Positions 179-61,391 are shown, numbered from the stretch's first letter. The stretch is 64,000 nt of DNA from an uncultured Candidatus Peribacteria bacterium (GCA_964635215.1 CAZWNJ010000001.1:254741-318740); one strand, 5' to 3'. A program made the numbers and translations. Notes: generated from the letters alone by a model not told the origin.

Positions 179-1315
179 TCATTCCTCCGGTAGGCGCAAC
201 GGCATGATCAGGTGAATGTACTGCGGAACTCCGGCAATCGCAAAGATCGCCGGGTGGACGCCGTCTTGAACGCGCATCTCCACCCCGTCACCACCAACGT
301 GTGACAAAAAATCGAGGAGGTAGGCGGAGGAGAGAGCGATCCGAGTGTCAGCGCCAGAAACCTGAGCCTGAACCGCGGCCTCATCCTGACCGAAAGCGGT
401 CTGGGGCGTGGTGATCGTCACTTGGCCAGCAGCGGAGCGGATGGTGAGATTGTTGTTCACCTCCTTGGCGAAGTAGTGCAGGCGGCGGACGGCGGTGGTG
501 AGCTCGCTTGTCTGGAACTGCATCACGGACGGTGTCTCTTTGGGGATGATCTGCTTGTAGTCGGGGAATTTTCCTTCAATAAGGCGTGAGAGTAAACGCG
601 TCGAGCCCACGTTAAATTCCACTTGTTGAGTACTGAGGACGATTTCCACCGTCGCGGCTTCCGGGCCGGTCTTGCCTGACTTACGGCCAGCGAGGATGGA
701 ACGAAGTTCGTCGAGAACCTTCACCGGAATGATGCAGGAGATGTCCTGACCCCCCTGTGGCAGCGGCAGGCGGCTCTCTGAGAGGCGATAGCTATCGGTG
801 GCAGCCAACACGAGCTCATCCTTCTCGCAGCGCACAAAGACGCCAGAGAGCACGGGGCGGAGGGCAGTGCGAGCGCAGGAGAAGGTGACGAGGTGGAGCG
901 CATCGAGAAGGATGGCGCCATCCACCACAAGCACGCTCTGACGATCGATTGTGGGAATTGTGGGATAATCGGTAGCAACTTCACCTGCGAGATTCGCTTT
1001 AGCGTGAGCCGACGAACACTTCAACTGCGTGCCCTCTTTGGTTTCGAGAAGGATTTCTGGATCGTTGTTGTACTGCACGAAGTTCAAAAGGGCCTTCGCG
1101 GGAATTGTCAGCGAGCCCTCATTCTCAATCGACGCCTCAATAGAACTAACAATGGAAAGCTCTAAATCCGTGGCGCTGATCGTGCAACGCTTTCCCTCCG
1201 CTTGAATAAGGACGTTTCCCAAAATCGGCAACGCTTGTTGCGCGCTGATTGCGCGTGACACAACTTGGAGGGCCTGTAGGAGTTCCGATGTTTTACACTG
1301 GAGTTTCATCTGCAC
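179..1315 (-). CDS. dnaN: DNA polymerase III beta sliding clamp
   Basis: 378-aa ORF. N-terminus MKLQCKTSELLQALQVVSRAISAQQALPILGNVLIQAEG. Three-domain length and the C-terminal YIHLIMPLRL are typical of DnaN. Confidence 0.95.
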   Translation of the reverse strand: MQMKLQCKTSELLQALQVVSRAISAQQALPILGNVLIQAEGKRCTISATDLELSIVSSIEASIENEGSLTIPAKALLNFVQYNNDPEILLETKEGTQLKCSSAHAKANLAGEVATDYPTIPTIDRQSVLVVDGAILLDALHLVTFSCARTALRPVLSGVFVRCEKDELVLAATDSYRLSESRLPLPQGGQDISCIIPVKVLDELRSILAGRKSGKTGPEAATVEIVLSTQQVEFNVGSTRLLSRLIEGKFPDYKQIIPKETPSVMQFQTSELTTAVRRLHYFAKEVNNNLTIRSAAGQVTITTPQTAFGQDEAAVQAQVSGADTRIALSSAYLLDFLSHVGGDGVEMRVQDGVHPAIFAIAGVPQYIHLIMPLRLPEE

Positions 1316-3950: not shown

Positions 3951-5237
3951 TCAGTGGGCGCGCAGAACCCGGCGGGCCTGGAGGAGGCCTACTGCCGCAC
4001 CCGTCACAATGAGAGTGAGGACGAGTGACGCTGGTCCTGAAGACGTCAGCGGCGTGCTTGGGGTGATTGTGGATGTGGTAACAACCGTTGCCAATGGAGC
4101 GGGTGGCACGGCAGTGCCGCGATTCCCAAGGAGGATCGAACGCTCGGTCGAAAGGTTGGCAGCACCCGAGATCGAAATGGGGGTCAGATTGACCGTGAAG
4201 CTGCCGGCGGGAACGCGCTCGATACGAACCATGCGCATATCTGAGGGGAGGATCTGCGGATTGCCGAAGGTCTTACCGCCATCAATGGACTGTGACAGGG
4301 CAAAACCACCCACATCCTGATCGTCCAGCTGCCAGCCAAGTTCCACATCATAGAAGTCGTCCGTTCGAGGGAAAGATTCTAGGCTCAGGGCGAGCTTGTC
4401 CGAGGACGCCTTCTTCACGCTTGAGCTCGAAGACGCAGGAGATTCCGAGGCAGTCGTTGCGACGGAAGACGTAGTGGCGCTGGAAGAGGAGGCGCGGGCG
4501 GGGGCGGTAATGACGGTCTTCACCGTTTCAACAGGGGCCGGGACCGTGCTCTTGAAGGATTGACCGGTGCGGTCGGCAAGTACGAGTGGGGCGGCGCCCG
4601 AGTCCTTAGGCAAACCGAAGAAAGCGGAGGGCGTGAGGGCGACGTTGTAGGAGCCGCTTTTTTGCGCAGCGGTAGTGATAAGCAGGGAGTTATCGGCGAG
4701 CTTCAGGCCCGTCACGGGCAAGAGGGCGCCGCTACCGTCGGTGATCTGGATCGCGTTTTCGAGCGCGGCCACGTTCAGAACAAGAACATGCGAGAACATG
4801 AGGCGAACGCTGTTGGCAGTCACCGGCGTCACAGTGAGGAGACGCAGGTTGTCGGCCGGGCTTTTGGCGGTGATCGCGACATATGCTTCTTCGGCGAAGG
4901 CTGGACTCTCCTGACCAGCGGCGTCTATGGCGATGACGGCTACGTATGTCTCTTGGTCGCTTGGCATGCTCTTCAACATGAACGTCGTCACGTCGCCGGC
5001 CGTGTCCTCGCTATCGTCGTAGTTGCCGTCATTCCCAAGAATGGAGGCGTTGCTCCAGTAGACGCGGTAGTGGTCGATGTTTGTGCCGGCCGACTGCCAA
5101 GAGACGACGATGTTCGGTCCCTTGCGTTCCGCGACGATCCCACGGACGTTCTCCGGAGCGACGCTGGCGGCGAGCGCGAGCAGCGGCACGGCCAACGTGA
5201 GCGAGGCGGCGATGAGAGTGTGTGTGAGGCGGGACAT
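3951..5237 (-). CDS. secreted fibronectin type III domain protein with Ser-rich linker and C-terminal hydrophobic anchor
   Basis: Signal peptide MSRLTHTLIAASLTLAVPLLALAAS. Fn3-like stretch PENVRGIVAERKGPNIVVSWQSAGTNIDHYRVYWS. C-terminus ...LTSSGPASLVLTLIVTGAAVGLLQARRVLRAH. Confidence 0.7.
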   Translation of the reverse strand: MSRLTHTLIAASLTLAVPLLALAASVAPENVRGIVAERKGPNIVVSWQSAGTNIDHYRVYWSNASILGNDGNYDDSEDTAGDVTTFMLKSMPSDQETYVAVIAIDAAGQESPAFAEEAYVAITAKSPADNLRLLTVTPVTANSVRLMFSHVLVLNVAALENAIQITDGSGALLPVTGLKLADNSLLITTAAQKSGSYNVALTPSAFFGLPKDSGAAPLVLADRTGQSFKSTVPAPVETVKTVITAPARASSSSATTSSVATTASESPASSSSSVKKASSDKLALSLESFPRTDDFYDVELGWQLDDQDVGGFALSQSIDGGKTFGNPQILPSDMRMVRIERVPAGSFTVNLTPISISGAANLSTERSILLGNRGTAVPPAPLATVVTTSTITPSTPLTSSGPASLVLTLIVTGAAVGLLQARRVLRAH

Positions 5238-5312
5238 GTGAGTGTTTCTCTTCAGTATAACAGAATTCTGGCCAGCTGGCTCTTGCCTGGACCGTCTGAA
5301 TGTGACCTATCG

Positions 5313-6488
5313 TTAATGCGAGATATTACCAACGACACTGTAAATCGGCGTCAGAATGGCGAAGGCAATGAAACCGACGAGTCCACCGATGAAGAGCAGG
5401 AGCATCGGCTCCAGCACGACCGGCAGTTTCTGGGCGGTTTCGGCCGCCTTGCGGTCATAGATGTCGGCGATCTTCAGGAGAATCTGGGCGAGCGTGCCCG
5501 AGCGTTCACCAACGACGATGAGCGACGTCACTGACACGGGCAGGAGCTTGCGGCTGGCCTTCAATTCCGCGAAGCACTTCTGGAACGACTGGCCGAGCGT
5601 GATCTCTTCAGTCATGCGGGCGTAGAGATCCTTATACGTCAATACACTCGTCACGTCGGTGAGCGAGCGCATCGCCTCAGTGAGGGGAACTCCAGCTTGC
5701 AGAAGGCCACCGAGGATGACGCCGAAGCGGGCGATTGTGGCTGAGCGGGCCAATGGCCCGATGCCCGGTGTGGCGAAGACCAGCCACTGCAGCGATCGGC
5801 GCATCGGCGTCCAGAGGGCGTTGAGCACGACGATCGTCAGCAGGCCGCCGATACCGATCGCGATGACGAGAGAGCCGTGGTTCGACGAGAAGTCCGCGAA
5901 GGCGATAAGAACACGTGTGGCGAGCGGGAGCGGGGCGTTGAGCGAGATGAGCACTTGCACAAGGTTCGGCAGGACGAAGACGCCGAGGATGATGACCATT
6001 GCCACCACGAGCACGATGACGATTGCGGGGTAGATCATGGCCATCTTCACTTTGGATTTCAGCTCGCTGTCCTTGTCCTGTTGCACGGCCAGGTAGGCCA
6101 TGTTGCGCGCGAGTGTGCCCGCCTCTTCGCCGATGCGCACGAGGGCGATGGCGTAGGTGGTGAAGAAGTGCTGTTCGTCCATCGCCACCCACAGTGGCGT
6201 GCCGCTCTCGACTGATTCCAAAATCTTCTTCACGATCTTTTTCATCGGCTTCACCGTCGTTTCTTCCAGCACGGTCTCCAGGGCGTCCACGAGCGGCAAG
6301 CCGGCATTGAGCAGCGTCCCCATGTTCTCGATGAACATCGTTCGCTCGCGGCCCATGCCGATGTAATTGAGTGACGTGAGGAAGCTCGTGAGTTTGCTGT
6401 CGACTTTCTTCTTGGGCGCGACGGCGAGAGTGGCGGTGGTGACCGCGGCAGGAGTGGGGGCGGCCGGCGCGGGGAGGGTCTCAGCCAT
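5313..6488 (-). CDS. pilC: type IV pilus assembly platform protein (GspF/PilC family)
   Basis: 391 aa with two T2SS-F repeats and three TM segments. Sequences such as FIENMGTLLNAGLPLVDAL and LLQAGVPLTEAM are typical of PilC. Confidence 0.9.
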   Translation of the reverse strand: MAETLPAPAAPTPAAVTTATLAVAPKKKVDSKLTSFLTSLNYIGMGRERTMFIENMGTLLNAGLPLVDALETVLEETTVKPMKKIVKKILESVESGTPLWVAMDEQHFFTTYAIALVRIGEEAGTLARNMAYLAVQQDKDSELKSKVKMAMIYPAIVIVLVVAMVIILGVFVLPNLVQVLISLNAPLPLATRVLIAFADFSSNHGSLVIAIGIGGLLTIVVLNALWTPMRRSLQWLVFATPGIGPLARSATIARFGVILGGLLQAGVPLTEAMRSLTDVTSVLTYKDLYARMTEEITLGQSFQKCFAELKASRKLLPVSVTSLIVVGERSGTLAQILLKIADIYDRKAAETAQKLPVVLEPMLLLFIGGLVGFIAFAILTPIYSVVGNISH

Positions 6489-6491
6489 GGA

Positions 6492-8309
6492 TTAGACGCG
6501 AGGCGGGGTGGGCTTTTGGGTCTTCGGGGCGGCCAGCGGCTCGGGTGGGGCGGCGACGCGCAGGAGCTCCTCAAGACTTGTGACACCGCGCTTCACCTTC
6601 TCGAAGCCGTCTTCAAAGAGCGTAGCCATGCCCTGGCGGCGGGCGAGGTCATTGATGTCGGAACTGCTCGCGCGTTTTACGATCAGCTCTTCCATCTCGG
6701 GTGTGATCTGGAGTACTTCGTAGATGCCGACGCGGCCGCGGTAGCCGGTCTGGCTGCAGCGCTCACAGCCTTTACTGCGATAGAGGAGAAGACGCCCGTC
6801 GGCGGGAAAGAGGCTGTCGCCAGCCAGCGGGAAGAGTGTGCGGGCTTCCTCGCGCGAGACCATCGCGGTGTAGCGGCAGTGTGGGCAGAGGCGGCGAACG
6901 AGGCGCTGGGCCACCACCACCTCGAGCGTCGAGGCGACGAGGTAGGGTTCGACGCCCATGTCGAGCAGGCGCGGGATGGCTGTGGCAGCATCGTTGGCGT
7001 GGAGCGTCGAGAGCAGAAGGTGGCCGGTCAGGGCGGCGTTCACAGAGATCGATGCCGTCTCGCCATCACGGATTTCACCGACGAGGACGATGTCTGGGTC
7101 CTGGCGGACGAGTGAACGCAGACCCGAGGCGAACGTGAGGTTGGCCTTGGGGTTTACCTGAATATGGTTCACACCGGGCACCTTGTATTCCACTGGATCT
7201 TCGATGGTGGAGATATTCACATCAGGATGGTTGCGGAGCTTCACGAGGGCATAGAGCGTCGTCGACTTACCGGCGCCGGTCGGACCGACCGTGAGCAGCA
7301 TGCCGAAGGGTTGGAAAGCGGCTTTCTTCAGCACTTCCTGCTGTTTCTCAGAGAAGCCGAGATCGTCCAGGGTGATCGTACGGACATAGGCCGAGAGCAC
7401 GCGCATCACCACCTTCTCGCCGTCTACGATCGGGACAATCGAGACACGCACATCCATCGTTTCACCGTTGCTCACCACGCGTAGTGCCCCGTCTTGGGCG
7501 GCGTAGTGTTCGTCGATGCGCATGTTGCCTTCGATCTTGATGCGGTTCACGACGCCTTCGTACTGTTCCCTCGGCAGGCGACCGACTTCATGAAGCACGC
7601 CGTCCACACGGAAGCGGACGACGACGTGTTTTTCCTGAGGTTCAAAGTGGATGTCCGAGGCGCGCAGCTGGAAGGCATCGCTGATGATCTCCTGGAGGAG
7701 GATCGGAGCAGGCTTCTGCTTCTCGCTGATGATCTCCTGAAAGCGCGACGCGAGGGGCTTACGGTAGTGCGCGAGGAGCGAATCGATGGACGATTGCGGG
7801 ACGTAGACGAAGCGGATGGCGCCGATGAAGCGCTGTCGCTCGGCGGCCTTGCTGCGTCCAAGACTGAGAAGCGAGTCCAGCGGGCCAGCCGCCTTGGGGG
7901 CAGTGACTTCGGGCGAAGCGCCTTCGGGCAAGATGCCTTCCGCTTGGTCGATATTTTGACGCAGGGCTTCCTCCAGATTTTCACGCGTGGGATCGGGAGT
8001 GGCGACGGTTACACCAGCAGCGTCGCGGGCAACCACAACGCACAAGAACGTCCGTGCCACATTCTCTGGCAGGGCGGCGATGAGTTCAGGCGTGATGTCG
8101 GCGTGCTCAATGTCGAAGTGAGCGAGCTGAAAATGCTCGGCCATCGCGCTCTCGAGGAGTTCTTGGGTGAGGAGTCCGAGTTCGAAGAGCGCCGCTTTGA
8201 GTGACAGTTCATGTTGTGATGCGTGTTCTTCAGCACGCTTTAAATCCTCTGGCGAGAGGTAGTTTTGCTTGATGAGGAGCTGGCCGAGATCAGTGTCGGT
8301 GAAGGCCAT
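6492..8309 (-). CDS. pilB: type IV pilus assembly ATPase (GspE/PilB family)
   Basis: Walker A LLTVGPTGAGKSTTLYA, Asp box, Walker B DIVLVGEIRD, His box and tetracysteine motif CPHC...CERC. N-terminal MshEN-like domain. Confidence 0.93.
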   Translation of the reverse strand: MAFTDTDLGQLLIKQNYLSPEDLKRAEEHASQHELSLKAALFELGLLTQELLESAMAEHFQLAHFDIEHADITPELIAALPENVARTFLCVVVARDAAGVTVATPDPTRENLEEALRQNIDQAEGILPEGASPEVTAPKAAGPLDSLLSLGRSKAAERQRFIGAIRFVYVPQSSIDSLLAHYRKPLASRFQEIISEKQKPAPILLQEIISDAFQLRASDIHFEPQEKHVVVRFRVDGVLHEVGRLPREQYEGVVNRIKIEGNMRIDEHYAAQDGALRVVSNGETMDVRVSIVPIVDGEKVVMRVLSAYVRTITLDDLGFSEKQQEVLKKAAFQPFGMLLTVGPTGAGKSTTLYALVKLRNHPDVNISTIEDPVEYKVPGVNHIQVNPKANLTFASGLRSLVRQDPDIVLVGEIRDGETASISVNAALTGHLLLSTLHANDAATAIPRLLDMGVEPYLVASTLEVVVAQRLVRRLCPHCRYTAMVSREEARTLFPLAGDSLFPADGRLLLYRSKGCERCSQTGYRGRVGIYEVLQITPEMEELIVKRASSSDINDLARRQGMATLFEDGFEKVKRGVTSLEELLRVAAPPEPLAAPKTQKPTPPRV

Positions 8310-22226: not shown

Positions 22227-22301
22227 GCCGCCTTAGCTCAGTGGTAGAGCAACGCACTTGTAATGCGTGGGTCGCGAGTTCAACTCTCGCAGGCGGCTCC
22301 A
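22227..22301 (+). tRNA. tRNA-Thr (anticodon UGU), CCA encoded
   Basis: Cloverleaf by hand: acceptor GCCGCCT/AGGCGGC, D arm GCTC-AGTGGTA-GAGC, anticodon arm ACGCA-CTTGTAA-TGCGT, T arm GCGAG-TTCAACT-CTCGC. Confidence 0.9.
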
Positions 22302-22373
22302 TGAAGCCATCAACACGGTCTTGGGGAAGTGCCTTGAACCATTGCCATAATAGGTATTTCATGTTGTTAAACT

Positions 22374-22940
22374 ATGCTTGAAGTCGAAACGAAATTCTTG
22401 GAAATTGATCCTGAGGCCGTTCTCGCTGCGCTGCAGGATTTGAAAGCGGAGCCGCTCTACGACGGTCTCATTGAGACGCGTTACTACGACAATGCCACCC
22501 GCACGATCCGTAGCCAGCAGAAGTCCTTCAGGCTGCGCTTAAAGGTGCTGACCGGCGATGTCTGCCTAACGTCCAAGCGCAAGCTGAGCGACAATCGTGT
22601 GCGCATTTGCGAGGAACACGAAGTGGCCATCGGGAATGGCAGCGGCGCGACCGGCCGAGCGCGCTTTGAGGAAATGCATTTACTCCTCGCTGCGATTAAC
22701 TTCGAGCCCTATCGCACGTTCACCAAGCGACGCGTCTCGCACGCCATTGGCGACACGCACTTTGAGATTGATACGATCTTGAATATCGACGGTCAGGATG
22801 TGTCGATCCCGCCACTCCTCGAAGTGGAATCATCCAGCGCTGATGCCGTCCTGCATTATGCCGGTCTCCTCGGCTTCAAGCCTGAACAGGCCCAGCCCAT
22901 CTCCACTCGGTCCGTTTTCAAGCGCTACAAGAAGACATAA
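22374..22940 (+). CDS. CYTH domain protein (triphosphate tunnel metalloenzyme / class IV adenylate cyclase-like)
   Basis: N-terminal ExExK signature (MLEVETKFLEI), later basic and acidic strands (FRLRLK, TSKRK, EEHEV, FEIDTI). 188 aa. Confidence 0.78.
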   Translation: MLEVETKFLEIDPEAVLAALQDLKAEPLYDGLIETRYYDNATRTIRSQQKSFRLRLKVLTGDVCLTSKRKLSDNRVRICEEHEVAIGNGSGATGRARFEEMHLLLAAINFEPYRTFTKRRVSHAIGDTHFEIDTILNIDGQDVSIPPLLEVESSSADAVLHYAGLLGFKPEQAQPISTRSVFKRYKKT

Positions 22941-24084
22941 TGCGCGCCATGCGCGCGGTCCAGGCGAAGTGAATCACTCGCTCTTTTGCGGTGCCCGCAC
23001 GCGTGGCTGAACCACGTTGGTCGTCGAGTGCGTCACGCAGAGCGCGGGCCAAATCGGCCGCGTCACCCGGCCGGCAGAAGCGCGTCACGCTCTCGTCCGC
23101 CAGATCATGAATCGGCGGCAGGTCGGCGCAGACGGTCGGTATGCCGGCGGCCATGTACTCGAGGAGTTTGAGCGGCGAGGTGTCGCGCTGGAAGAACGGG
23201 TCGGCGCTGTCGGGCGCTGGAAAGACGCCGAGGTCGGCCGCAGCCATGGCGAGCGGCACTGACGCTGAGGGCACGGGCCCTTCAAAGCGAATGGCGTCTT
23301 GGCCAAGTCCCTTGGCGCTGGCGAGCGTCTGTAGCCGGCTGACGTCACCGGCCGGTCCGCCGACGATCCAGACGAGGGCGCGGACTCCTTGCATCTGCAA
23401 GATGGCGGCGGCGTCGATCAATTCTTCGACGCCCTTGGGAAGATCGTGACCGGTCTTCAGTGAGCCGACGTAGGCGATGACGGGGCGGTCTGTCGGGAGC
23501 GACCAATGGGCTTTGGCTTTGGGGTGCGGCGGCAGGTGTGCAAAAGATTCCAGATCGACGCCGTCGGGTTCGACCATGATCTTCTCGGCCGGTACGCCGC
23601 GGCGGACAAGTTCGTCTTTCATTGGCGTGGTCAGGGCCACGATCAGATGACAGCGGCGGCAGCGGCGAATGAAGCCTGGGCGCAGACGGTGAGGAATGGT
23701 GTGGAGTTCGAGGATGGCGGGGATGCCTCGCTCCAGGGCCGGGGCCAGCACGGAGACGGTGCGGGCGTAGACGATGTCGGGCTGGTGTGCGGCTAGCCAC
23801 TCGTCGAGGAGGCGGCGGTACGAGAACCAGCTGGCGTGCACGGCGAGCGGCCCAGGGATGAGTGGATGTTGAAGGGCTACGAAGGCGGGGAGCTTGGCGA
23901 CTGGCACGTCGCGATCAATACGGTAGACCTCCTTGAGGGCGCCGCCGATGGCACCAGGGACGTCGGGACAGACAATAGTGACGTCGTGGCCGATTGCTGT
24001 CAGCGCGGCGCTGACCTGGGCGATCTGGTGACCGTAGGCTTTCTCGGTCGGAAAACGGCCGTGGGCGATGTACGCGATACGCAC
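22918..24084 (-). CDS. glycosyltransferase family 4 (GT-B fold)
   Basis: MRIAYIAHGRFPTEKAYGHQIAQV..., with C-terminal EGPVPS...FQRDTSPLKLLEYMAAGIPTV (E-x7-E region). Its 3' end overlaps the convergent CYTH gene by 23 nt. Confidence 0.9.
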   Translation of the reverse strand: MRIAYIAHGRFPTEKAYGHQIAQVSAALTAIGHDVTIVCPDVPGAIGGALKEVYRIDRDVPVAKLPAFVALQHPLIPGPLAVHASWFSYRRLLDEWLAAHQPDIVYARTVSVLAPALERGIPAILELHTIPHRLRPGFIRRCRRCHLIVALTTPMKDELVRRGVPAEKIMVEPDGVDLESFAHLPPHPKAKAHWSLPTDRPVIAYVGSLKTGHDLPKGVEELIDAAAILQMQGVRALVWIVGGPAGDVSRLQTLASAKGLGQDAIRFEGPVPSASVPLAMAAADLGVFPAPDSADPFFQRDTSPLKLLEYMAAGIPTVCADLPPIHDLADESVTRFCRPGDAADLARALRDALDDQRGSATRAGTAKERVIHFAWTARMARIMSSCSA

Positions 24085-24116
24085 GAGGCGATTCTAACGG
24101 TCTTTGGGCGTTTGTC

Positions 24117-25154
24117 TTAGAGGAGATTTTTGAACGCGTACGTGAAGAACTTGTCGATACGCAGATAATCGGCGAAGGCGCGGCGGGCTTGGTACTGAGC
24201 CTCTATGAGGTCGTTGGCCGAGGTTTTGTGCCACCAGGCGCGGACGCGCTCGGGTAGGCGGGGAAGCTCGCGCATATCAACACTCAAGAGGAAACGGTCG
24301 TAGGGCACGACACCCTCGAGCGGGAGGGGGGTTTCGGTATCGACGAAGAGGAGCGGTCTTCCGAGACTTAAAGCCTCGTAGAAGCGGTAGGAATAGTTGC
24401 CGTCGCCCTTCACTACAAGTGCCAAGTCGCAATCACGCAGATTGTCGACGTACTCGCGGCGGGCTCGCTCTGGCGGCAAGCTGATCGTCTTGGCGTGGCC
24501 GGAGTAACTCTTGCGAATGAGGAAATTTGTCTTCAAGCCGTGCGCCCCCTGCAAGGCATGCAGCGCCCGGCGTCGGAAGGTGAGGCCTTTGCGTTCGGCC
24601 AGACGCCGGCGGTCGAAGGCGGCGAGGACTTCGAGGTAGGTGAGCGCGTTGCCGACCATGGTGCCGACGCGGTTCTGCAGATTCTTGTAGTCCGACCAGC
24701 CGCAGAAGCCGATGACTGGCTCTGCCCCCTTATGGCGCGGGACGAGGGGTTCGGCGCCAAGGAGGTCCTCGGCGTACGCGGGCATCATGATTTCGTTCGA
24801 TCTCAGCGCGTAGCGGTAGGCAGACGAGATGAAGGCGACGGAATGGGGGAGGTTGATGACTGGCGGGGCATCGCCGTAGGCGACGGTGATGATTTTCTTT
24901 CCCAAGCGTGAGGCGAGCGTGGTGATCGTGTCTAAATAGGCGCGGTCGTGCTGGACGGCGGCGAAGGGGTGCGGAATGAGGATGAAGTCGGCGTCCTCGG
25001 GCCGGTCGGCCAGACGGACGATTGGATCTTGTAGACAATCGAAAGCGTGGTCGAGGAAAAGAATGCGGCTCCGCTGGTCCTCCTGACCGAGGTTTGGGTT
25101 TAGCAGCGGAATGTGGGGCAGGCCGGACTTGAAGACACAGTAGACCGAACGCAC
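24117..25154 (-). CDS. exostosin-like (GT47-type) glycosyltransferase family protein
   Basis: The C-terminal block CDLALVVKGDGNYSYRFYEALSLGRPLLFVDTETPLPLEGVVPYDRFLLSV resembles the exostosin-domain signature (FCL.P.G....R..EA...G.IPV...PF). Confidence 0.65.
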   Translation of the reverse strand: MRSVYCVFKSGLPHIPLLNPNLGQEDQRSRILFLDHAFDCLQDPIVRLADRPEDADFILIPHPFAAVQHDRAYLDTITTLASRLGKKIITVAYGDAPPVINLPHSVAFISSAYRYALRSNEIMMPAYAEDLLGAEPLVPRHKGAEPVIGFCGWSDYKNLQNRVGTMVGNALTYLEVLAAFDRRRLAERKGLTFRRRALHALQGAHGLKTNFLIRKSYSGHAKTISLPPERARREYVDNLRDCDLALVVKGDGNYSYRFYEALSLGRPLLFVDTETPLPLEGVVPYDRFLLSVDMRELPRLPERVRAWWHKTSANDLIEAQYQARRAFADYLRIDKFFTYAFKNLL

Positions 25155-25356
25155 GGCCTAAGCCTATCAGAGCGCGGTCGCCAAGGGGCGACCAATTCGC
25201 TAGCCTTTTGCCATCGCCCGCCTCTACTACGAAATCCTCCCGCCGGCTTTCAAGAAATTCTCCGTCCTGACGGCGGGGCGCACCTTATTGCCCACACTTG
25301 GGTATTACCTGCGCCGGCCGATACTGCCACCCAGTGAAAAGCTGCCGCTCTTCACC

Positions 25357-26241
25357 ATGAACATCCTTCCCCCGATGGGACGGGTGTGGCTGCACTACGC
25401 TAAGAAGTACCTGGGTGACAATGTCGACATCACGATCTTCGACTGCTCGGGACGGCTCAATCCGGCCGACTTTCCGGGGGCGACGGTGCAGCCGTTTCTC
25501 AACTTCTATGCCGCGACGAAGAGTGACGAATTCCTCTATCACATCGCCAAGAACCGTCGTCACGGTTGGATCTGTGACGACGACGTCTTCTTTGTGAGCG
25601 ACGAGTCGCTCCACGTTCTAAAGCGTGAGTTCGCCGTGCCCGGCACGGCCTCGGTGAGCCTTCGCCCGCGCAACTGGTGGGAGTTCCAGATCGACGGTCA
25701 GACGTACCCTGTCTCGGGGAGCTACTCCATTGCCTTCGACCGCGAGATCTTCTGCAAAAAAGAACACCTGTCGCTTCGACCGGCCGACGGCAACACGCAC
25801 CGGTCGCTCAACGGCAAGGATTTGAAGCGCTACGACACGGGCGACCTGAGCAACGAACTGCTCATCCGCCGCGGGTACCGTTGCTACGTCAGTCCGCCCG
25901 ACGAGAGCAAGCGCTGCATCGCGGCCTTCTCGGGGCTCAGCGGCGCGGTCATTCTGCTTTGGCTCTTCAAGCGTCCCGAGCAGGTGCTGGACTACTTCGA
26001 ATCCCCGCCCAAGGAGAGCTGGAGCGGGACGATGCTCTTCGGCCTTCTCTCCTCCATGCTCGCGATCTGGACGATTCAGGATCTGCACGAGAAGATCACG
26101 GGCAAACCCTACCCTCTGCCGTCTCTGCCGCCACGTCAGGCCCTGGAACGGATCGCCAAAGAAGCGGCCCCGTACCTGCCCACCGGGTCGGATTTCCGTT
26201 GGATCGAAGAGGTGCGGGAGCAGCTACTGAAGGCGCTCTAA
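25357..26241 (+). CDS. hypothetical protein, possible DxD glycosyltransferase
   Basis: ATG at 25357 (MNILPP); the ORF-track start at 25288 is a TTG. Contains the DxD-like WICDDDVFF. Sits inside a glycan gene neighbourhood. Confidence 0.6.
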   Translation: MNILPPMGRVWLHYAKKYLGDNVDITIFDCSGRLNPADFPGATVQPFLNFYAATKSDEFLYHIAKNRRHGWICDDDVFFVSDESLHVLKREFAVPGTASVSLRPRNWWEFQIDGQTYPVSGSYSIAFDREIFCKKEHLSLRPADGNTHRSLNGKDLKRYDTGDLSNELLIRRGYRCYVSPPDESKRCIAAFSGLSGAVILLWLFKRPEQVLDYFESPPKESWSGTMLFGLLSSMLAIWTIQDLHEKITGKPYPLPSLPPRQALERIAKEAAPYLPTGSDFRWIEEVREQLLKAL

Positions 26242-26255
26242 GCTACACTCTGGCC

Positions 26256-27113
26256 ATGCCCGAATTGCCGGAAGTCGAGACCGTCCGCCGGAGTCTCGAG
26301 CGCCATCTCCCCGGACGCCGGATCACGGGCGTCGAGGTTCGTCACCAGAAGAGCATCGGCGGAAACGCCGCCTTTGCGACATGGCTTCTGAAGCGCACGA
26401 TCGATCGGATCGACCGGCGGGCGAAGTTGCTTATTATTCGTTTCAAAGACGACCGCGACGTGCTGGCGATCCATCTGAAGATGACGGGTCAGCTGCTCTA
26501 TCAGCAGGGTATGGTGAAGGCCGGCGGCGGCCACAGCCTGTCTCAAGCAGCTGATGAGCTCGACGACCGCCATGCCCGCGTCATCCTGACGTTCGATAAC
26601 GGCGCGCGGCTCGTCTTCAACGATCTGCGACTCTTCGGCTATCTGCGCCGGTACGATTCGCTGCGATTGGAGCGCGAACTCACGGGCTACGGCCCGGAGC
26701 CGGGGACGCCCGCCTTCACCGTCGCCGTCCTGACAAACGTCCTCGGCAAGCGAAAGGCACCGCTTAAGGCCGTGCTCCTTGATCAGCGGCGGATCGGGGG
26801 ATTGGGCAATATCTACGTCGACGAAGCCTGCTTCCGGGCAAAGATCAAACCAACGCGTCGCGCCGGTTCGCTGAAGGCGGCGGAAATCGCCGCGCTCCAT
26901 GCCGCTTGCGGCGATGTCATCACCGAGTCGATCGCCGTTGGCGGCACGACCTTCCGCAGCTACACCGATGCCGACGGCAAGAGTGGCGGATTTTTGGCCA
27001 AGCTCAAGGTGTATGGCCGCCAAGGCAAAGCCTGCCTTCGTTGCCGAGGCATGATTAAGAAGGCGGTGTGTGCCGGGCGCGGCACACACTTCTGTCCCGA
27101 TTGCCAGCAGTAG
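26256..27113 (+). CDS. mutM: formamidopyrimidine-DNA glycosylase
   Basis: MPELPEVETVRRSL (catalytic Pro2/Glu3), an H2TH region and the C-terminal zinc finger CLRC...CPDCQ. The ORF-track frame 25677-27113 is only an upstream extension. Confidence 0.92.
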   Translation: MPELPEVETVRRSLERHLPGRRITGVEVRHQKSIGGNAAFATWLLKRTIDRIDRRAKLLIIRFKDDRDVLAIHLKMTGQLLYQQGMVKAGGGHSLSQAADELDDRHARVILTFDNGARLVFNDLRLFGYLRRYDSLRLERELTGYGPEPGTPAFTVAVLTNVLGKRKAPLKAVLLDQRRIGGLGNIYVDEACFRAKIKPTRRAGSLKAAEIAALHAACGDVITESIAVGGTTFRSYTDADGKSGGFLAKLKVYGRQGKACLRCRGMIKKAVCAGRGTHFCPDCQQ

Positions 27114-27159
27114 TTCTGCCCGAGCGGTACGTCAGTACGATTGCTGCTAGACTACGGTC

Positions 27160-27471
27160 ATGCCCGTCAAACGCGCCCACCTCAACGACTTCGCCAAGCT
27201 CCTGGCCTCGGTCCGGACATCGGCCGAGAGTGCCCGGCTCTTGGAAGATCTGCTGACGCCGCAGGAGCACGAGGAACTGGCCCGTCGGTGGCAGATCGTG
27301 CAGATGCTCTGGCGGCGTATGCCGCAGCGCGACATCGCCAAAAAGCTGAAGGTGAGCGTCAGTAAGATCACGCGCGGCTCGCGAGCGATGCAGTACGGAT
27401 CGGGCGGATTTGAACTCTTCTTGAAGCGCCTCAAAAAGCCGCGCACGCCGCCGCGCGGGATACGCTCATAA
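27160..27471 (+). CDS. TrpR-like YerC/YecD family DNA-binding protein
   Basis: LEDLLTPQEHEELARRWQIVQMLWRRMPQRDIAKKLKVSVSKITRGSRAMQYGSGGFELF closely follows the YerC/YecD pattern. Confidence 0.85.
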   Translation: MPVKRAHLNDFAKLLASVRTSAESARLLEDLLTPQEHEELARRWQIVQMLWRRMPQRDIAKKLKVSVSKITRGSRAMQYGSGGFELFLKRLKKPRTPPRGIRS

Positions 27472-27588
27472 CCGACGCGGGTGATGCAATAACCTGGGTA
27501 TTCCTTGGGGCTACTTTGGCCTAATTTGACATACCCCACCTTAGGTATCCCGCTATCCTTTTGGGGCGTTTTCTGCTATTCTGTACAG

Positions 27589-27906
27589 ATGGCACAAACT
27601 CTCCTTGTCCTTCTTCAGAACTCCCACTCCCTTTCGGACGCGGATAAACAGAGGCTCTCGGAGCAACTGCCGCTGATGACAGTCGAAGAGCAGCAGTCTT
27701 TGGAGGGCGCGCTGATGAAAGAGGCTGCCAGAGTGAAACAAATCGAAGATCAACACCAAAGCCAGTCGCACATCTTGAATGAGGAATACGAGCGGACAGT
27801 ATCGGACTTCAAAACGCATACCCTCAAAACCATCCGCAGCTCCACCGAACAGAACAAGCGCACGGAAGAGATGCAAAAAATAGACGAGGCGCTTAACTCT
27901 GCCTGA
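27589..27906 (+). CDS. hypothetical coiled-coil protein (low-GC island)
   Basis: 105-aa Gln/Glu-rich helical ORF with an ATG at 27589. It is co-oriented with the 942-aa gene and ends 20 nt before it. The ORF-track start 27505 adds a hydrophobic extension that I consider less likely. Confidence 0.5.
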   Translation: MAQTLLVLLQNSHSLSDADKQRLSEQLPLMTVEEQQSLEGALMKEAARVKQIEDQHQSQSHILNEEYERTVSDFKTHTLKTIRSSTEQNKRTEEMQKIDEALNSA

Positions 27907-27926
27907 CGTGCCTACGGCGCTCTGCT

Positions 27927-30755
27927 ATGGAAAATCGAGACATCACCCCTGGCGAAGTGAAAGAAACCGCGCAATCGGAGGTGAAACCGGATAAGGAGAA
28001 GAAGCCGGATGCCAAGCCCATTGACGGCGCGCGGGTGCGTAATGACGTGGCAGAAGTGCTTAGTAAATTGGACTATCTGCAGCGCGACGTTCAGGAGGAT
28101 GTCGTGAAGGATTTTCGGGCCAAACTGGATGCTATCCGTCAAAAATTCCAAAAACTCGATGAGACAAAAGTGGATGCCCTACGCGAGTTGGAGAAAGAGA
28201 TGTACAAAGAATTCAGTCCGTTTCTTAAGAAAGCCGCCCAATCGCAGTTGAGCAAGTGCAAGAACATTCAGAAGGTGACATTTGAGAAGAGGGGGATGAA
28301 CTTTACATTCGGTGGCCAAACGATGTCAGCCGAGCTGACCGATCTTTATGAAATTCGATCGGTGCAAATCCTCGGCGCGACGGTGCGATTTCAGAAGCCA
28401 GTGCAGCTGAAAGACTTTGACAATCGTATGGGTAATAATTTATTGGCATCGCTCCAGCTCATCGCTAAACGCTTTGATCCGAAGGGAATGGAGATTCTTG
28501 CTACGGAATTGTGGTACGAATTCACGGCAAAGGACGATGGCAAAGAGAGGCAGTTTGTCGCTACTCCGCAGGATGTCCTCGAGGTGACGCAGGTACCAAC
28601 AGCTGAGAAAGTCCAGGAATGGAGAAATGCTCTAAAGGATTTGAATGCCATCCAAAAGCGTATGGAGGAGACTGAGCGGTCCATGCGAGAGGCGTTCAAA
28701 GACACGGACGTGATGATAAAAATGCAGATAAATGGGACATCCGGCATCGACGTGAGCAAGTTCACTCCAGAACAGAAGAAGATCTGGGATGCGTTTCAGG
28801 CACTCCGAAAAGAATTCGGTGTTGCCGCAGAGAAGGAGCGTTCGCTGCGTCGCGAGTGTGGTACACGTATGTTGAAAACCAAAGACGGCACTCAAGTTCG
28901 TGAGGAAAGTGATCCTGAGTGGAAATTTAGTTTCCAATGGGTCTATCTCAACAAGGACGGCAAAGAACAAACGCGGCTTTCTTGGTCAGGCTTTCGGTAT
29001 AGGGGGAAAACGGAGTACGAGTATGAAAAGGGAGAGCCAGTACGGCAGACGTATTTCAGCGAAACTGGTCAGCCGGAATACATGAGGGATTTTCGCTCGG
29101 GGACGTCAGATATCTATGACAAGAAGGGGAAGAAATCATATCGCGAACTTTTTGATTTGGAGAAGCCCGATATTCGCATCGGAACACAAATGTACGATGC
29201 CGAAGGCAGGCTGATGGACGAGAGGGCGTTGCAGGCCATGACTCCTGCGCAAATTGAGGCATTCTTCCTTCCGCTGTTAGCGCAGGAGGATTTTCGCGCG
29301 CAAAGAGTAGCCATTGATGCGTGTTATACGGCAGCAAAGTACATCATCAAGTGTCCTCGTGGTGAAGAAATTATGCGCAGAGTTGTACTCAGCAGCACAT
29401 TGGTAGCCTTCGAAGAGTTCACGAAGTACAAGGATGCGCCGTATGCCGTGAAACTGCTGGAGGAGGCCGCATACCAGATCGAGGATAAGGAAGTTGTAAC
29501 GAGAATGGTGAATGATGCCACGAAAGTGCCAGGACTCTCAGAGGGCGATAAAAAGCGCATTATTGCAATGGCCGGGAGAAAGAAAGTGAATACACCGCTC
29601 GCCGAAAAACTCCTATCAATTGATCAACAGCCACAGCGAGCGCGGTTGCTGGAAGATCCCGGTTTGAGAGACTGGTCTGAGGTAAAGGAAGAATGGATCG
29701 ATTGGAGGAAGCTGAAATCTCCGGCGAGCGGCGAGAAGCAAGCAGCGGTATGGAAATTACAAATGCGGGCGATGATCGCTAGAAATCTCTATTTCCAGAA
29801 TCTAGAAGTGAACGAGGCGAACGTGAAAAAGGAATTCTTGCGGATCGTTGAGACGAGGGAAAAATATTCTACGCTGAAGGTGTTTAAAGGCAGGAATGTT
29901 CTGCATGCTGCACACACCGAATTGATCCGAGATGTTAAAAAGCTTGATGGCAAGCTCTTCACCGATGAGCAATATCAAGAATGGGAGAAGGCATCCGAAG
30001 ATCCACATCGCTTTGGGAAAAAGGGAACCCAGGACGCGATCAAAAAACAGCAAGATGGAGAAGGTACCTATGAAATGCTTCGTCCCGCAAAAAATCTAGA
30101 AGCTCTGCAGAAGGCCAAGGAGGATATTCTGCAGAAAATAAAAACCATGGGGCCGCCTTCAACGTTTATTTTTGATGGGCATGGCGGACCAGATGCGTGG
30201 TATTTGTCTGATGGCACCGTTTCTGGAACGGCGAAGGCTGGTACTGTGAATGAGACAGATACAACAGTGAAAATTTCCGTAGAAGAACTGGCGCAAGCCT
30301 TAGTTGAAAGAGCAAAGAAATTTCCCCAATTACGAACAAATGATCCGAGCAAGAAAGATATATTCATCTTCGCCTGTTGTTATAACACCAATTTTATCCG
30401 CAGCCTGTATATGCAGATGGGTGATGCGCCAAAGCCAATTGCCCTGGGAGCGTCCGAGTATGGTCAGTATGGCTACTCCAAACTTGGCTCAATACATGGC
30501 AGCCGTTTCTTCTCCGAAATATTACAATTAGAGAAAAACAAAAAAACTCACATTAATCCTGTGAGTCCCTCGAGAAAACAGCTCATTATTCATGAAGCTG
30601 CGAAGCGACCAACCGTAATTTCCGATGTTTTTGAGAACGAATTTAGTGACGATTCCAATCCAAGTCTCTACATACCGGACGATAAGAACCTGCCTATGCA
30701 AATAACGAGGGATGATGGGGATCATGGCAATAGAGACAACACTCAGGGTGCATGA
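27927..30755 (+). CDS. large orphan protein with C-terminal clan CD (legumain/caspase-fold) cysteine peptidase-like domain
   Basis: 942 aa with an ATG start in a low-GC region. C-terminal STFIFDGHGGPDAWYL then, 65 aa later, DIFIFACCYNTNF matches the strand-His-Gly / strand-Ala-Cys dyad of family C13-like peptidases. The N-terminal 730 aa contain coiled coils and YD/MORN-like hairpins. No signal peptide. Confidence 0.8.
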   Translation: MENRDITPGEVKETAQSEVKPDKEKKPDAKPIDGARVRNDVAEVLSKLDYLQRDVQEDVVKDFRAKLDAIRQKFQKLDETKVDALRELEKEMYKEFSPFLKKAAQSQLSKCKNIQKVTFEKRGMNFTFGGQTMSAELTDLYEIRSVQILGATVRFQKPVQLKDFDNRMGNNLLASLQLIAKRFDPKGMEILATELWYEFTAKDDGKERQFVATPQDVLEVTQVPTAEKVQEWRNALKDLNAIQKRMEETERSMREAFKDTDVMIKMQINGTSGIDVSKFTPEQKKIWDAFQALRKEFGVAAEKERSLRRECGTRMLKTKDGTQVREESDPEWKFSFQWVYLNKDGKEQTRLSWSGFRYRGKTEYEYEKGEPVRQTYFSETGQPEYMRDFRSGTSDIYDKKGKKSYRELFDLEKPDIRIGTQMYDAEGRLMDERALQAMTPAQIEAFFLPLLAQEDFRAQRVAIDACYTAAKYIIKCPRGEEIMRRVVLSSTLVAFEEFTKYKDAPYAVKLLEEAAYQIEDKEVVTRMVNDATKVPGLSEGDKKRIIAMAGRKKVNTPLAEKLLSIDQQPQRARLLEDPGLRDWSEVKEEWIDWRKLKSPASGEKQAAVWKLQMRAMIARNLYFQNLEVNEANVKKEFLRIVETREKYSTLKVFKGRNVLHAAHTELIRDVKKLDGKLFTDEQYQEWEKASEDPHRFGKKGTQDAIKKQQDGEGTYEMLRPAKNLEALQKAKEDILQKIKTMGPPSTFIFDGHGGPDAWYLSDGTVSGTAKAGTVNETDTTVKISVEELAQALVERAKKFPQLRTNDPSKKDIFIFACCYNTNFIRSLYMQMGDAPKPIALGASEYGQYGYSKLGSIHGSRFFSEILQLEKNKKTHINPVSPSRKQLIIHEAAKRPTVISDVFENEFSDDSNPSLYIPDDKNLPMQITRDDGDHGNRDNTQGA

Positions 30756-30903
30756 AATCGTCCAGTGGCGACCCGACTCTCGGGAGTATGCAAAATATAA
30801 ACGCGAGTTCAATTTTGTGATTGGATTCTTCCCCTGAAGGAAGGCCAGTCTTTGAGCGCCGCACTGACTTCCGATGCACATTGCCGCGGCAAAGCCTTCG
30901 AGC

Positions 30904-30993
30904 TGGCGGAGAGGGGGGGATTCGAACCCCCGAGACCCTTGCAGGTCTACGCGCTTTCCAAGCGCGCGCACTAGGCCACTATGCGACCTCTCC
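30904..30993 (-). tRNA. tRNA-Ser (anticodon GGA), long variable arm, CCA encoded
   Basis: The reverse complement reads GGAGAGG TC GCA TAGTGGCCTAG TGC G CGCGC TTGGAAA GCGCG T AGACCTGCAAGGGTCT C GGGGG TTCGAAT CCCCC CCTCTCC G CCA. Confidence 0.9.
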
Positions 30994-56991: not shown

Positions 56992-57618
56992 ATGCCGATG
57001 GAATATCCTACAGAGGACGGCACGATCGAAACGGACGCCCCACTGACGACGCCCGAGATGGTGACTATCACGCCCGAGCTGGCGGAGAAGCGACAGGCAC
57101 TGATCTTGGCCTTCACGGTGTTTCGGCCGAGTCTGCGGGCGTACTGTCTGAAGATTGGCGTGCGTGAGGATCGGGTTGATGATCTCCTGCAGGACGTGTG
57201 GATGCATGCCAACCTCAAATTGCACCAATTGCGTGAAGTTCGATCGGTCGGGTTCTGGGTGAAGCGCATTGCCCACCGCATGTCGATCAATCGCCACGTG
57301 CGTAGTCGCCGCGAACGACAGGCGAACGACAGCGAAATGGGGAATGAGCCTCACTTGTTCGTCGATGATGTTGATCAGCCACTCGACATCCTCATTGCTC
57401 GAGAAGAAGCAGATGCCGTCCGGGCGGGCATTGCCTCACTCAAAGACTTGGACCGCCAGACGCTCGATGATTACTACCTCAATCATCTCACCATCAAAGA
57501 GATCGCGGCCAAGGAACACACCTTCATCGGGACGGTGAAGCGGCGTCTCCATACAGCGAGACTCCGTCTGCGTGCCGTCCTGCCGTCGGACATCTGTGAA
57601 GGGGGTGACGCGGAGTGA
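56992..57618 (+). CDS. ECF-type RNA polymerase sigma factor
   Basis: Region 2 (DDLLQDVWMHANLKLHQL...WVKRIAHRMSINRHV) and region 4 HTH (LTIKEIAAKEHTFIGTVKRRLHTARLRLR). Confidence 0.83.
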   Translation: MPMEYPTEDGTIETDAPLTTPEMVTITPELAEKRQALILAFTVFRPSLRAYCLKIGVREDRVDDLLQDVWMHANLKLHQLREVRSVGFWVKRIAHRMSINRHVRSRRERQANDSEMGNEPHLFVDDVDQPLDILIAREEADAVRAGIASLKDLDRQTLDDYYLNHLTIKEIAAKEHTFIGTVKRRLHTARLRLRAVLPSDICEGGDAE

Positions 57619-59999: not shown

Positions 60000-61391
60000 T
60001 CAGTCGGCCCCCTTTCGGCCCAGGATTACAACGAGCGTGCGCCAACAGATCCAGAGATCCGTCGTCCATGACCACTCTTCGATGTACTGCAGATCGAGCC
60101 GGACTTCGTCGGCGAAGCTCAGGTCGCTGCGTCCCGAGACTTGAGCCAGGCCGGTGATGCCGGGCTTCACGGCGAAGACGCGGCGTTCGCGCGGGGAGTA
60201 GCGCGAGACTTCCTCCGGCAGGTGCGGGCGCGGCCCGACGAGCGACATCTGGCCGACGAGGACGTTGAAGAGCTGGGGCAGTTCGTCGAGCGACCACCGG
60301 CGCAGGAAGTGGCCCAAGGGGGTGACGCGCGGGTCGTTATGAATCTTGAAGAGTGGGCCGTCCTGGCGGTGATTCTGCGCGGCTAGAGCGGGTTTAATGG
60401 CGTCGGCTTCCTTGATCATCGTGCGGAATTTCAGGACCGGGACCAGAGTCGTGCCGTGCTGTCCGACGCGGCGCGAGACGTAGAGGATCGGCCAGCCGCT
60501 TGTGAGCAGGATGAGTAGGGCGATGAACAGGAGTAGCGGCGACAGGAGAATGAGCGCGAGCGCGGCGCCGAGCATGTCCATGGCGGCCTTGCCGACGCGG
60601 CCCCAGCCGTCGAGAGGTGTTGGCTGGAAGCGAATGAGCGGCAGGAGCCCCAGACGGTCGATGGCGAGCAGGTGGGGTGACTCAGTGAACACCGGCGGCA
60701 GGAAGGCGTATTCGACGTGGCGACTGCGGCAGAAGTCGATGAGCTGGAGCGTGTCTTCACGGTCGGGATCGGGACAAGTTTCGATCACAAGATCGACCGC
60801 GCCGCTCTCGGCCAGGTGGACCACTTCGGCGAAGGACGAGGCGTGGGCGACGAAACGATAGGATGGCTCGGAGAGCAGTGGCTCGAGGACACCGGGGGGC
60901 AGACGGCGGCCGATCGTCACGACCTGACGCACACCGAAGCCCGCCCTGAGCAGTCCGCGGTAGGCGATGGTCAGGAGCGCACGCAGGCCCACGACGCAGA
61001 CGGTCATCAGCACGACGGCGTGTAGGAGCAGGATGCGTGAGTAGAAGAGTTCTTTGCGGACGAAGAAGTACCAGATGGTGACGACGACGAGCCACGTCGC
61101 CACGGCCAGACAGATCTGGCCGAATTCGCGCCAGCCGCTCTGCGTGCCACGGAAGGCGTAGAGGTTGTGGAAGGCGGAACCGGCCAGGTAGATCGCGATG
61201 CTCGGGATGATGAACGTTGAAAAGTACTCGGCAAACGCCGGCAGCGTCGTCGGCGCTTCAAGCAGCTGGACGCCGGGGATAAGGTCCATGTTCGCCTGGC
61301 GTAGGCGATAGCTCACGACCAGCGCCAGGAGCACGGCGAGGGCGTCCATGGGGACGCGGAGGGTGCCGAAGAGGATCTCGAGCTTCTTCAC
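60000..61391 (-). CDS. polyprenyl-phosphate sugar phosphotransferase (WbaP/exopolysaccharide priming enzyme family)
   Basis: N-terminal TM helices, then the C-terminal bacterial sugar transferase domain (RVGQHGTTLVPVLKFRTM, DELPQLFNVLVGQMSLVGPRP, KPGITGLAQV). Confidence 0.9.
   Translation of the reverse strand: MKKLEILFGTLRVPMDALAVLLALVVSYRLRQANMDLIPGVQLLEAPTTLPAFAEYFSTFIIPSIAIYLAGSAFHNLYAFRGTQSGWREFGQICLAVATWLVVVTIWYFFVRKELFYSRILLLHAVVLMTVCVVGLRALLTIAYRGLLRAGFGVRQVVTIGRRLPPGVLEPLLSEPSYRFVAHASSFAEVVHLAESGAVDLVIETCPDPDREDTLQLIDFCRSRHVEYAFLPPVFTESPHLLAIDRLGLLPLIRFQPTPLDGWGRVGKAAMDMLGAALALILLSPLLLFIALLILLTSGWPILYVSRRVGQHGTTLVPVLKFRTMIKEADAIKPALAAQNHRQDGPLFKIHNDPRVTPLGHFLRRWSLDELPQLFNVLVGQMSLVGPRPHLPEEVSRYSPRERRVFAVKPGITGLAQVSGRSDLSFADEVRLDLQYIEEWSWTTDLWICWRTLVVILGRKGAD

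Follow-up and report, generated by a model that had tools for sequence, protein, structure and literature searches.

A probably horizontally acquired two-gene cassette beside tRNA-Ser(GGA) in a Candidatus Peribacteria bacterium encodes a protein with a predicted caspase/legumain-like fold

We detected a segment of low GC (guanine plus cytosine) content at positions 27472–30903 of a 64-kb window, the whole stretch of 64,000 nucleotides analyzed here, from an uncultured Candidatus Peribacteria bacterium of the Candidate Phyla Radiation (CPR). This segment is very probably a two-gene operon that the bacterium acquired horizontally. Its two open reading frames (ORFs), orf105 and orf942, lie between a host gene for a TrpR/YerC-like regulator and the host tRNA-Ser(GGA) gene, and structural modeling gives high confidence that the C-terminal module of the orf942 protein has a caspase-hemoglobinase (clan CD) fold and belongs to a new sequence family. 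Overall, we favor with moderate confidence a combined reading in which the cassette is a recently acquired hotspot operon whose clan CD-fold protein would act as a partner-regulated, conflict-type protease. The host was placed in Candidatus Peribacteria (CPR/Patescibacteria) by searching GTDB genomes with the neighboring PheT protein, and the whole-window GC of 60.8% is in line with the mean of 58.5% for published Peribacteria genomes, which average 1.25 Mb in size (PMC4736985). The features of the locus are as follows.

27160–27471, plus strand: TrpR/YerC-like regulator, host gene and left boundary (PF01371 Trp_repressor, E 5.6e-23; GC at third codon positions, GC3, 0.82)
27472–27588, no strand: left junction and cassette upstream region, holding the GCTATTCT box (27575–27582) and no tRNA-derived repeat
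27589–27906, plus strand: orf105, small acidic helical protein of 105 aa, upstream partner of the large gene
27927–30755, plus strand: orf942, whole gene, 942 aa
27927–29276, plus strand: orf942 N-terminal module, residues 1–450, coiled-coil and beta segments
29277–29744, plus strand: orf942 middle region, residues 451–606, predicted helical
29745–30755, plus strand: orf942 C-terminal module, residues 607–942, a helical lead-in followed by a predicted caspase/legumain-like (clan CD fold) core
30756–30903, no strand: right junction, in which host-level GC is regained over the last ~70 nt before the tRNA
30904–30993, minus strand: tRNA-Ser(GGA), host gene and right boundary (ARAGORN; Rfam RF00005, 54.4 bits)

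Composition sets the segment apart from its host by three measures. The GC content of 27472–30903 is 48.6%, compared with 61.5% in the rest of the window, and in 500-nt windows it falls from ~0.62 to 0.43–0.51 across ~27500 to ~30900. The only 1-kb windows below 0.55 are those of the island and a milder dip (0.53) at 501–2000. The strand-symmetrized tetranucleotide L1 distance reaches its maximum for the 64 kb at 27501–30500 (z=5.0), and GC3 is 0.53 in orf942 and 0.65 in orf105, against 0.76–0.85 in five neighboring host genes, with orf942 having the lowest value among the confidently identified long ORFs of the window. The original prediction, which was made from the sequence by eye, had described a low-GC island beside tRNA-Ser(GGA) starting at the stop of a yerC/trpR-like gene (27471) and had named sliding-window GC, tetranucleotide and codon-usage statistics as its check; the drop, its left boundary and all three statistics bear this description out. 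The orf942 protein contains 10% Lys and 9% Glu, and a share of the GC deficit is due to this composition, which does not explain the deficit in GC3. Over 22239–30932, an independent Logan assembly (L002) agrees with the window at 100% identity, crossing the left junction and reaching 29 nt into the tRNA; an assembly chimera is therefore ruled out.

Both genes are missing where the flanking genes are conserved. In three relatives from GTDB (L003, L004 and L005, with PheT 74–77% identical), the order Fpg, TrpR-like regulator, tRNA-Ser(GGA), NUDIX, M50 peptidase and PheT is kept, and the TrpR-like gene is 61–64% identical and unchanged in position. We found no match to orf105 or orf942 in any of the three despite these conserved flanks, and this absence, together with the deviation of GC, tetranucleotide usage and GC3 from the host, supports acquisition. 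The stop codon of the TrpR-like gene and the tRNA are 63 bp apart in L005, 736 bp in L004, 1143 bp in L003 and 3432 bp in the window, so that in L005 the regulator lies almost directly next to the tRNA, as expected from the original prediction for a genome without the island.

The gap between these two host genes holds different cargo in different genomes. L004 encodes a 188-aa secreted TPR-like protein there (733–1299), and L003 (7200–8279) encodes a 197-aa homologue, 36% identical to that of L004, along with a nucleoside 2-deoxyribosyltransferase-family gene (PF05014); none of these gap genes occurs anywhere in the 64-kb window. In L005, a type II restriction endonuclease and methyltransferase lie between Fpg and the TrpR-like gene (6339–7704) at a GC of 0.454 in a genome of 0.60, marking a second insertion point ~400 bp from the tRNA-Ser gap. 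The tRNA-Ser(GGA) gene, whose encoded CCA end points toward the cassette, is nearly invariant across the four genomes, and alignable sequence ends at that CCA; the right junction (30756–30903) could not be aligned to the matching region of L003, L004 or L005, nor to that of the metagenome contig L001 described below. The varied gap contents of the four genomes, the restriction-modification pair of L005 and the end of similarity at the CCA indicate that the interval from the TrpR-like gene to tRNA-Ser(GGA) is a gene-turnover hotspot, at which the window cassette represents one cargo out of several. In our reading, conserved tRNA genes act as fixed points next to gaps that are prone to recombination. 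A compensatory T-stem pair (G-C for A-U) and one variable-arm base are the only differences between the window tRNA and those of the three relatives.

The same cassette was detected in an unrelated context on a JGI metagenome contig (L001), where the large protein is 66% and the small protein 51% identical to those of the window. The GC of this copy is 0.47 and its GC3 is 0.52, the contig is ~50% GC, and an N-terminal fragment of an ISAs1-type transposase (PF13808) lies upstream. At the DNA level, the window resembles L001 only over 27569–30715, from ~20 nt before the orf105 ATG to the end of orf942, and the two cassettes have no shared element ends. A metagenome scan found L001 alone again. 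A −10-like box, GCTAT(T/A)CT, is kept in both copies (27575–27582 in the window and 892–899 in L001), and in the window GCTATTCT ends 6 nt ahead of the orf105 ATG, which suggests a promoter role and a leaderless or very short-leader orf105 transcript. Promoter and terminator scans yielded nothing above shuffle expectation, and the consensus promoter scan left this box uncalled.

The large protein of the cassette belongs to a sizeable family. An exhaustive HMMER search with a two-sequence profile detected 357 representative clusters (at 50% identity) at E<=1e-3, of which 103 reached E<=1e-30, giving a family of at least 357 clusters. What unites these clusters is a C-terminal stretch of ~330 residues, with the match often beginning near residue 480, and their N-termini are very variable. 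The result overturned the single-homologue orphan picture from a word-index search, and with it the description of the 942-aa ORF as an orphan in the original prediction. Across 140 aligned members, the most conserved residues are H752, C818 and E844 (99% each), R619 (97%), R795 and G753 (95% each), and R656 (94%), and the conserved motifs include FDGHGGPDAxYLSDG, DIxIFxxCYNxNFIR and PKPIxxGxSEYGQ. The putative catalytic codons are located at 30180–30182 (His752) and 30378–30380 (Cys818). A hydrophobic segment resembling a transmembrane (TM) helix was found in just 2 of 147 members, and orf942 itself has neither a signal peptide nor a TM segment; this near-absence of hydrophobic segments argues that the family is cytoplasmic. 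Family genes stand singly among housekeeping genes at unrelated loci, and the contexts sampled suggest that the family is common in CPR-type genomes. One member, from a Peregrinibacteria metagenome-assembled genome, is labeled just "Uncharacterized protein", and no paper in the literature searched connects Peregrinibacteria with caspases.

Established profile libraries do not capture this family. No Pfam model was reached in the 56 members scanned, including those for C13 (PF01650), C14 (PF00656), C25 (PF01364), C11 and CHAT (PF12770), and no NCBIfam, PADLOC or PHROGs model matched the C-terminal family. The sole Pfam signal was a sub-threshold Peptidase_C25 match (E 0.0075; for the window protein E 0.062, at 13 bits against a cut-off of 23), which spans the dyad region. 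Sequence searches of the PDB with single sequences and profiles retrieved designed proteins, coiled coils and tag artifacts only. Among the latter, the motif M-I-A-R-N-L-Y-F-Q-[G/N] (29772–29798, residues ~616–624), which resembles the tobacco etch virus (TEV) protease site ENLYFQ/G, hit the TEV cleavage tag (NLYFQG) of a PDB chain. The likeness is probably a coincidence; the ARNLYFQ motif is among the most conserved of the family (R619 97%, N620 85%, L621 88%).

Structure prediction provided the link to known peptidases. AlphaFold2 modeled residues 607–942 from a 124-sequence alignment with a mean pLDDT (predicted local distance difference test) of 91.3 and a pTM (predicted template modeling score) of 0.90, and nearly all of the top Foldseek matches of this model in the PDB were to caspase-7, caspase-8, CED-3, legumain, caspase-9, the Raptor caspase-like domain, SAVED-CHAT and MALT1 (probability 0.9–1.0, E from 1.4e-4; SAVED-CHAT 8tl0_D at E 1.7e-3). 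Against the BFVD viral library, the matches were giant-virus caspases and metacaspases. In the model, H752-G753 follows the strand at 745–750 (STFIFD) and C817/C818 follows the strand at 812–816 (IFIFA), so that a His in His-Gly precedes a Cys at strand ends in what appears, from strand position, to be the canonical clan CD arrangement. The Cys818/His752 pair would on this model form the dyad of a putative peptidase.

The module thus resembles the clan CD peptidases (C14 caspases and metacaspases, C13 legumain/GPI8 and C25 gingipain) in its predicted alpha/beta fold, with His-Gly after one hydrophobic strand (STFIFDGHG) and Cys after the next (IFIFACC). The pattern hhhhDGHGxP ... hhhhxxC is most like that of C13 (legumain/GPI8). 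The family differs in that its members match no clan CD model of Pfam or NCBIfam, in its own invariant set of R619, R656, R795, E844 and Q847, and in a ~135-residue lead-in that carries the ARNLYFQ motif.

The small gene upstream is a recurrent companion of the large one. Homologues of orf105 (100–108 aa; pairwise E 1e-8 to 1e-35) lie directly upstream of a large gene in six loci (the window, L001, L012, L014, L015 and L016), with a gap of −4 to +34 nt that is 20 nt in the window. The orf105 protein is small and helical with a net charge of −6; it matched no family in Pfam, NCBIfam, PADLOC or PHROGs, and a search with orf105 alone retrieved only itself. Upstream ORFs of 95 aa in L013 and 94 aa in L011 were considered as further homologues and rejected, as they show no detectable relation. 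Gene order and similarity across the six loci identify orf105 as a conserved operon partner of the large gene. The original prediction was right that the island holds two genes, and the coiled-coil ORF that it listed is such a partner rather than an incidental coiled coil.

The partner appears to follow the N-terminal part of the large protein. Residues 1–450 of orf942 are 33–35% identical to the corresponding parts of P0011 and P0018, are also common to P0004, P0005 and P0010, and have no Pfam or PDB match; an AlphaFold2 run on full-length orf942 from two sequences gave a pLDDT of 38.7, making the model of this module unreliable. The middle region (451–606) is common to a subset of members whose match starts at profile positions 410–580. 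P0011 (L015, 2052–4802) and P0018 (L016, 491–3436) have only the N-terminal ~450 residues in common with orf942, and both retain an orf105-like partner. At their C-termini, a GDCEDWAF...HAEC(F/V)W domain followed by TPR repeats replaces the caspase-like module. We take this domain, at the level of its motif, to be a transglutaminase or papain-like thiol peptidase; Pfam gave no match for it and so no support. Conversely, the caspase-like head is joined elsewhere to many different N-termini. With six orf105 loci, two of which have a different C-terminal head, the gene arrangements indicate that orf105 travels with the N-terminal module and that the head is interchangeable.

These features suggest how the combined reading of a partner-regulated protease might work. 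The orf105 protein would bind the N-terminal module and keep the large protein inactive or stable; a trigger would then release, assemble or oligomerize the large protein, and the Cys818/His752 protease could then cleave intracellular targets. Two-gene toxin-antitoxin or effector-chaperone operons offer a parallel, since here too the gene for a small acidic protein precedes, by 20 nt, that for a large one with a predicted enzyme domain, and the pair recurs in six loci, but no similarity of either protein to catalogued toxin-antitoxin, immunity or chaperone families was found. The arrangement is also like that of the caspase-like and CHAT effectors of prokaryotic immunity (SAVED-CHAT in type III CRISPR/CBASS-like signaling, gasdermin-activating proteases and NTPase-linked conflict systems): a large non-catalytic part is joined to a cytoplasmic protease domain of predicted clan CD fold, the spread is patchy and horizontally mobile, and restriction-modification genes lie at the same hotspot in a relative. 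The locus differs from these in lacking a SAVED, NTPase, CRISPR, cyclase or gasdermin partner, its sole conserved partner being the ~105-aa helical protein, and the NTPase-linked architectures described in a survey of caspase-like conflict systems (PMC7159879) are absent at the cassette. A conflict, defense or toxin-antitoxin-like function of the cassette is therefore a tentative suggestion. More speculatively, and in our view doubtfully, orf105 and orf942 may form a mobile two-component conflict system largely of CPR-type genomes, in which the small partner controls a sensor-effector with an interchangeable peptidase head. In such a system, a trigger such as phage infection would activate the peptidase against host or invader proteins, and the interchangeable heads would be either the clan CD caspase-like domain or the Cys/His-motif, transglutaminase-like domain.

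A protease of this kind might instead serve the episymbiotic lifestyle of CPR bacteria as an effector or processing enzyme, acting for example on host or surface proteins, with orf105 as a dedicated chaperone and no role as a defense system or toxin. A small, acidic, helical protein encoded directly upstream would suit a chaperone of the small acidic kind that serves secreted effectors, some family genes adjoin those of large surface proteins with Ig domains (Big_1/Invasin in L008 and Big_5/SLH in L010), and the family is suggested by its contexts to be common in CPR-type genomes. We nevertheless consider this explanation unlikely, since orf942 lacks the signal peptide or TM segment of an exported protein, as do nearly all of the members scanned for hydrophobic segments, no secretion genes are linked to it, and the cassette is missing from close relatives of the same lifestyle.

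Several observations weigh against the combined reading of a recently acquired, conflict-type protease operon. Family genes at other loci are 0.01–0.11 below host GC, so the deficit is partly intrinsic, and the synteny comparison involves just three relatives at about equal distance, so that on parsimony alone other lineages may have lost the genes. With no mobility gene or terminal repeat, the mechanism of insertion stays a proposal. The Foldseek scores are modest (E ~1e-4, target-normalized template modeling score 0.33–0.50), and identity to the structural matches is 9–14%. Neither orf105 nor orf942 had a match in PADLOC or PHROGs (PADLOC-DB v2, E<=0.1), in the same PADLOC-DB v2 search that did identify the restriction-modification pair of L005; apart from that pair, no defense genes recur beside family members. 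The argument for a conflict-system function is thus one from architecture alone.

The position of the cassette directly 3′ of the CCA end of tRNA-Ser raises the possibility that it is what remains of a classical tRNA-targeted integrative element (a genomic island, a prophage or an integrative and conjugative element) whose integrase and attachment (att) sites have since been lost. The original prediction saw in this geometry a typical tRNA-targeted insertion. The compensatory difference in the T-stem of the window tRNA is compatible with a replaced 3′ half, and two further family members with the caspase-like module lie near tRNA genes: P0008, 262 bp downstream of tRNA-Thr(CGT) (L010, 7663–7738), and P0009, 84 bp downstream of tRNA-Asp (L018, 6840–6916). 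With the window, 3 of 12 loci thus have a family gene within 300 bp of a tRNA (post hoc binomial P ~0.004–0.009). Like tRNA-adjacent genomic islands, the cassette is DNA of foreign composition directly 3′ of a tRNA and missing from relatives.

The remaining evidence runs the other way. No integrase, transposase or recombinase was found in or beside the island: both ORFs lack a recombinase domain, and its neighbors are the TrpR-like gene, Fpg, NUDIX and M50. Direct repeats of the tRNA 3′ end were likewise missing in a seed-based search; the original prediction had reported both absences by eye. The att remnant that it suggested looking for did not materialize: in eight Smith-Waterman tests that aligned the tRNA 3′ 50 nt and the full tRNA, in the window's and the relatives' versions, to the junction and island, scores stayed within the shuffle distribution. 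The best of these, 22, was reached by 4–5% of shuffles, uncorrected over the eight tests, and its alignment falls inside the orf105 coding sequence. PHROGs gave nothing significant for either protein, no viral copies were present in IMG/VR (scanned with an alignment, P0013 and the FDGHGGPDA motif) or INPHARED (tblastn), and no plasmid copies in PLSDB. Moreover, ~70 nt of host-like GC separate the cassette from the tRNA, the unit common to the window and L001 is just the two genes, and the cassette occupies non-tRNA sites in L012, L015 and L016. The locus also departs from tRNA-adjacent islands in having no att duplication and two genes only, and here the gap of the relatives holds other cargo and a second insertion point lies close by. 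A degraded integrative element is thus very unlikely and site-specific integration into the tRNA unlikely, and the geometry is better described as that of a variable hotspot. Arrival would probably have been via recombination using the conserved flanks, or via illegitimate or insertion sequence-assisted insertion.

That the pair is ancestral and vertically inherited, lost by the three relatives and low in GC merely from its Lys/Glu-rich protein, is highly improbable: family genes do lie under host GC at every locus examined, Lys and Glu are abundant in orf942, and a turnover-prone site makes loss plausible, but GC3, which is mostly independent of amino-acid composition, is far below that of host genes, the GC3 of a resident copy can come to match its host, as the sister cassette of a related high-GC genome shows, the closest homologue (66%) was found on a contig of ~50% GC next to a transposase fragment, and the gene-to-host GC gap of 0.136 in the window is the largest among the ten family loci tabulated.

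That sister cassette, at a different locus in the related genome L016, has a host-like GC3 of 0.785, which argues that long-resident copies equilibrate and that the window copy, at 0.53, is comparatively recent. Horizontal acquisition of the window cassette therefore appears fairly recent. The original prediction of an old or non-canonical acquisition from a low-GC donor holds for the non-canonical route and for a GC content below that of the host; its "old" does not, as GC3 is still far from the host value of ~0.80.

Other features of the window and its relatives were also noted. L016 encodes a DinG-like helicase and Bac_transf pair that is 43–54% identical to the one at 57615–61391 of the window. 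Beside Bac_transf, the window encodes a protein of 699 aa (61847–63946, minus strand) in which five Big_13 Ig-like domains are combined with a C-terminal SH3_3 domain; its GC3 of 0.64 is below that of typical host genes, and in its place L016 has a hydrolase and the sister cassette. In both the window and L005, a 294-aa hypothetical gene (75% identical) separates Fpg from a GT47-like gene; L003 lacks this gene and instead contains 1.9 kb of other sequence (4005–5937, GC 0.571), a further variable spot in the neighborhood. At 179–1667 of the window, dnaN (the beta clamp, with all three Pfam domains; 179–1315, minus strand) is followed by a lower-GC stretch; this is the one dip below 0.55 in 1-kb windows outside the island, and it may be the replication-origin region. 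The tRNA was the sole match in the Rfam scan.

Our findings indicate that small cassettes are traded between CPR bacteria, whose genomes measure ~1.2 Mb, at hotspots flanked by tRNA genes and without the help of integrases. The island itself is of a kind already known, an integrase-less cargo in a tRNA-flanked hotspot, and it is the putative peptidase family that is new to catalogues, combining a predicted caspase/legumain-like fold and a His/Cys dyad kept in almost all members of this sizeable group with a small partner and heads that can be exchanged. If active, this protein would add a new family to the clan CD peptidases and would be a candidate for regulated, possibly immune or suicidal, proteolysis in Patescibacteria, whose defense and host-interaction biology is mostly uncharted. 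Were it a conflict system, ultra-small episymbiotic bacteria would carry a caspase-type immune or suicide module.

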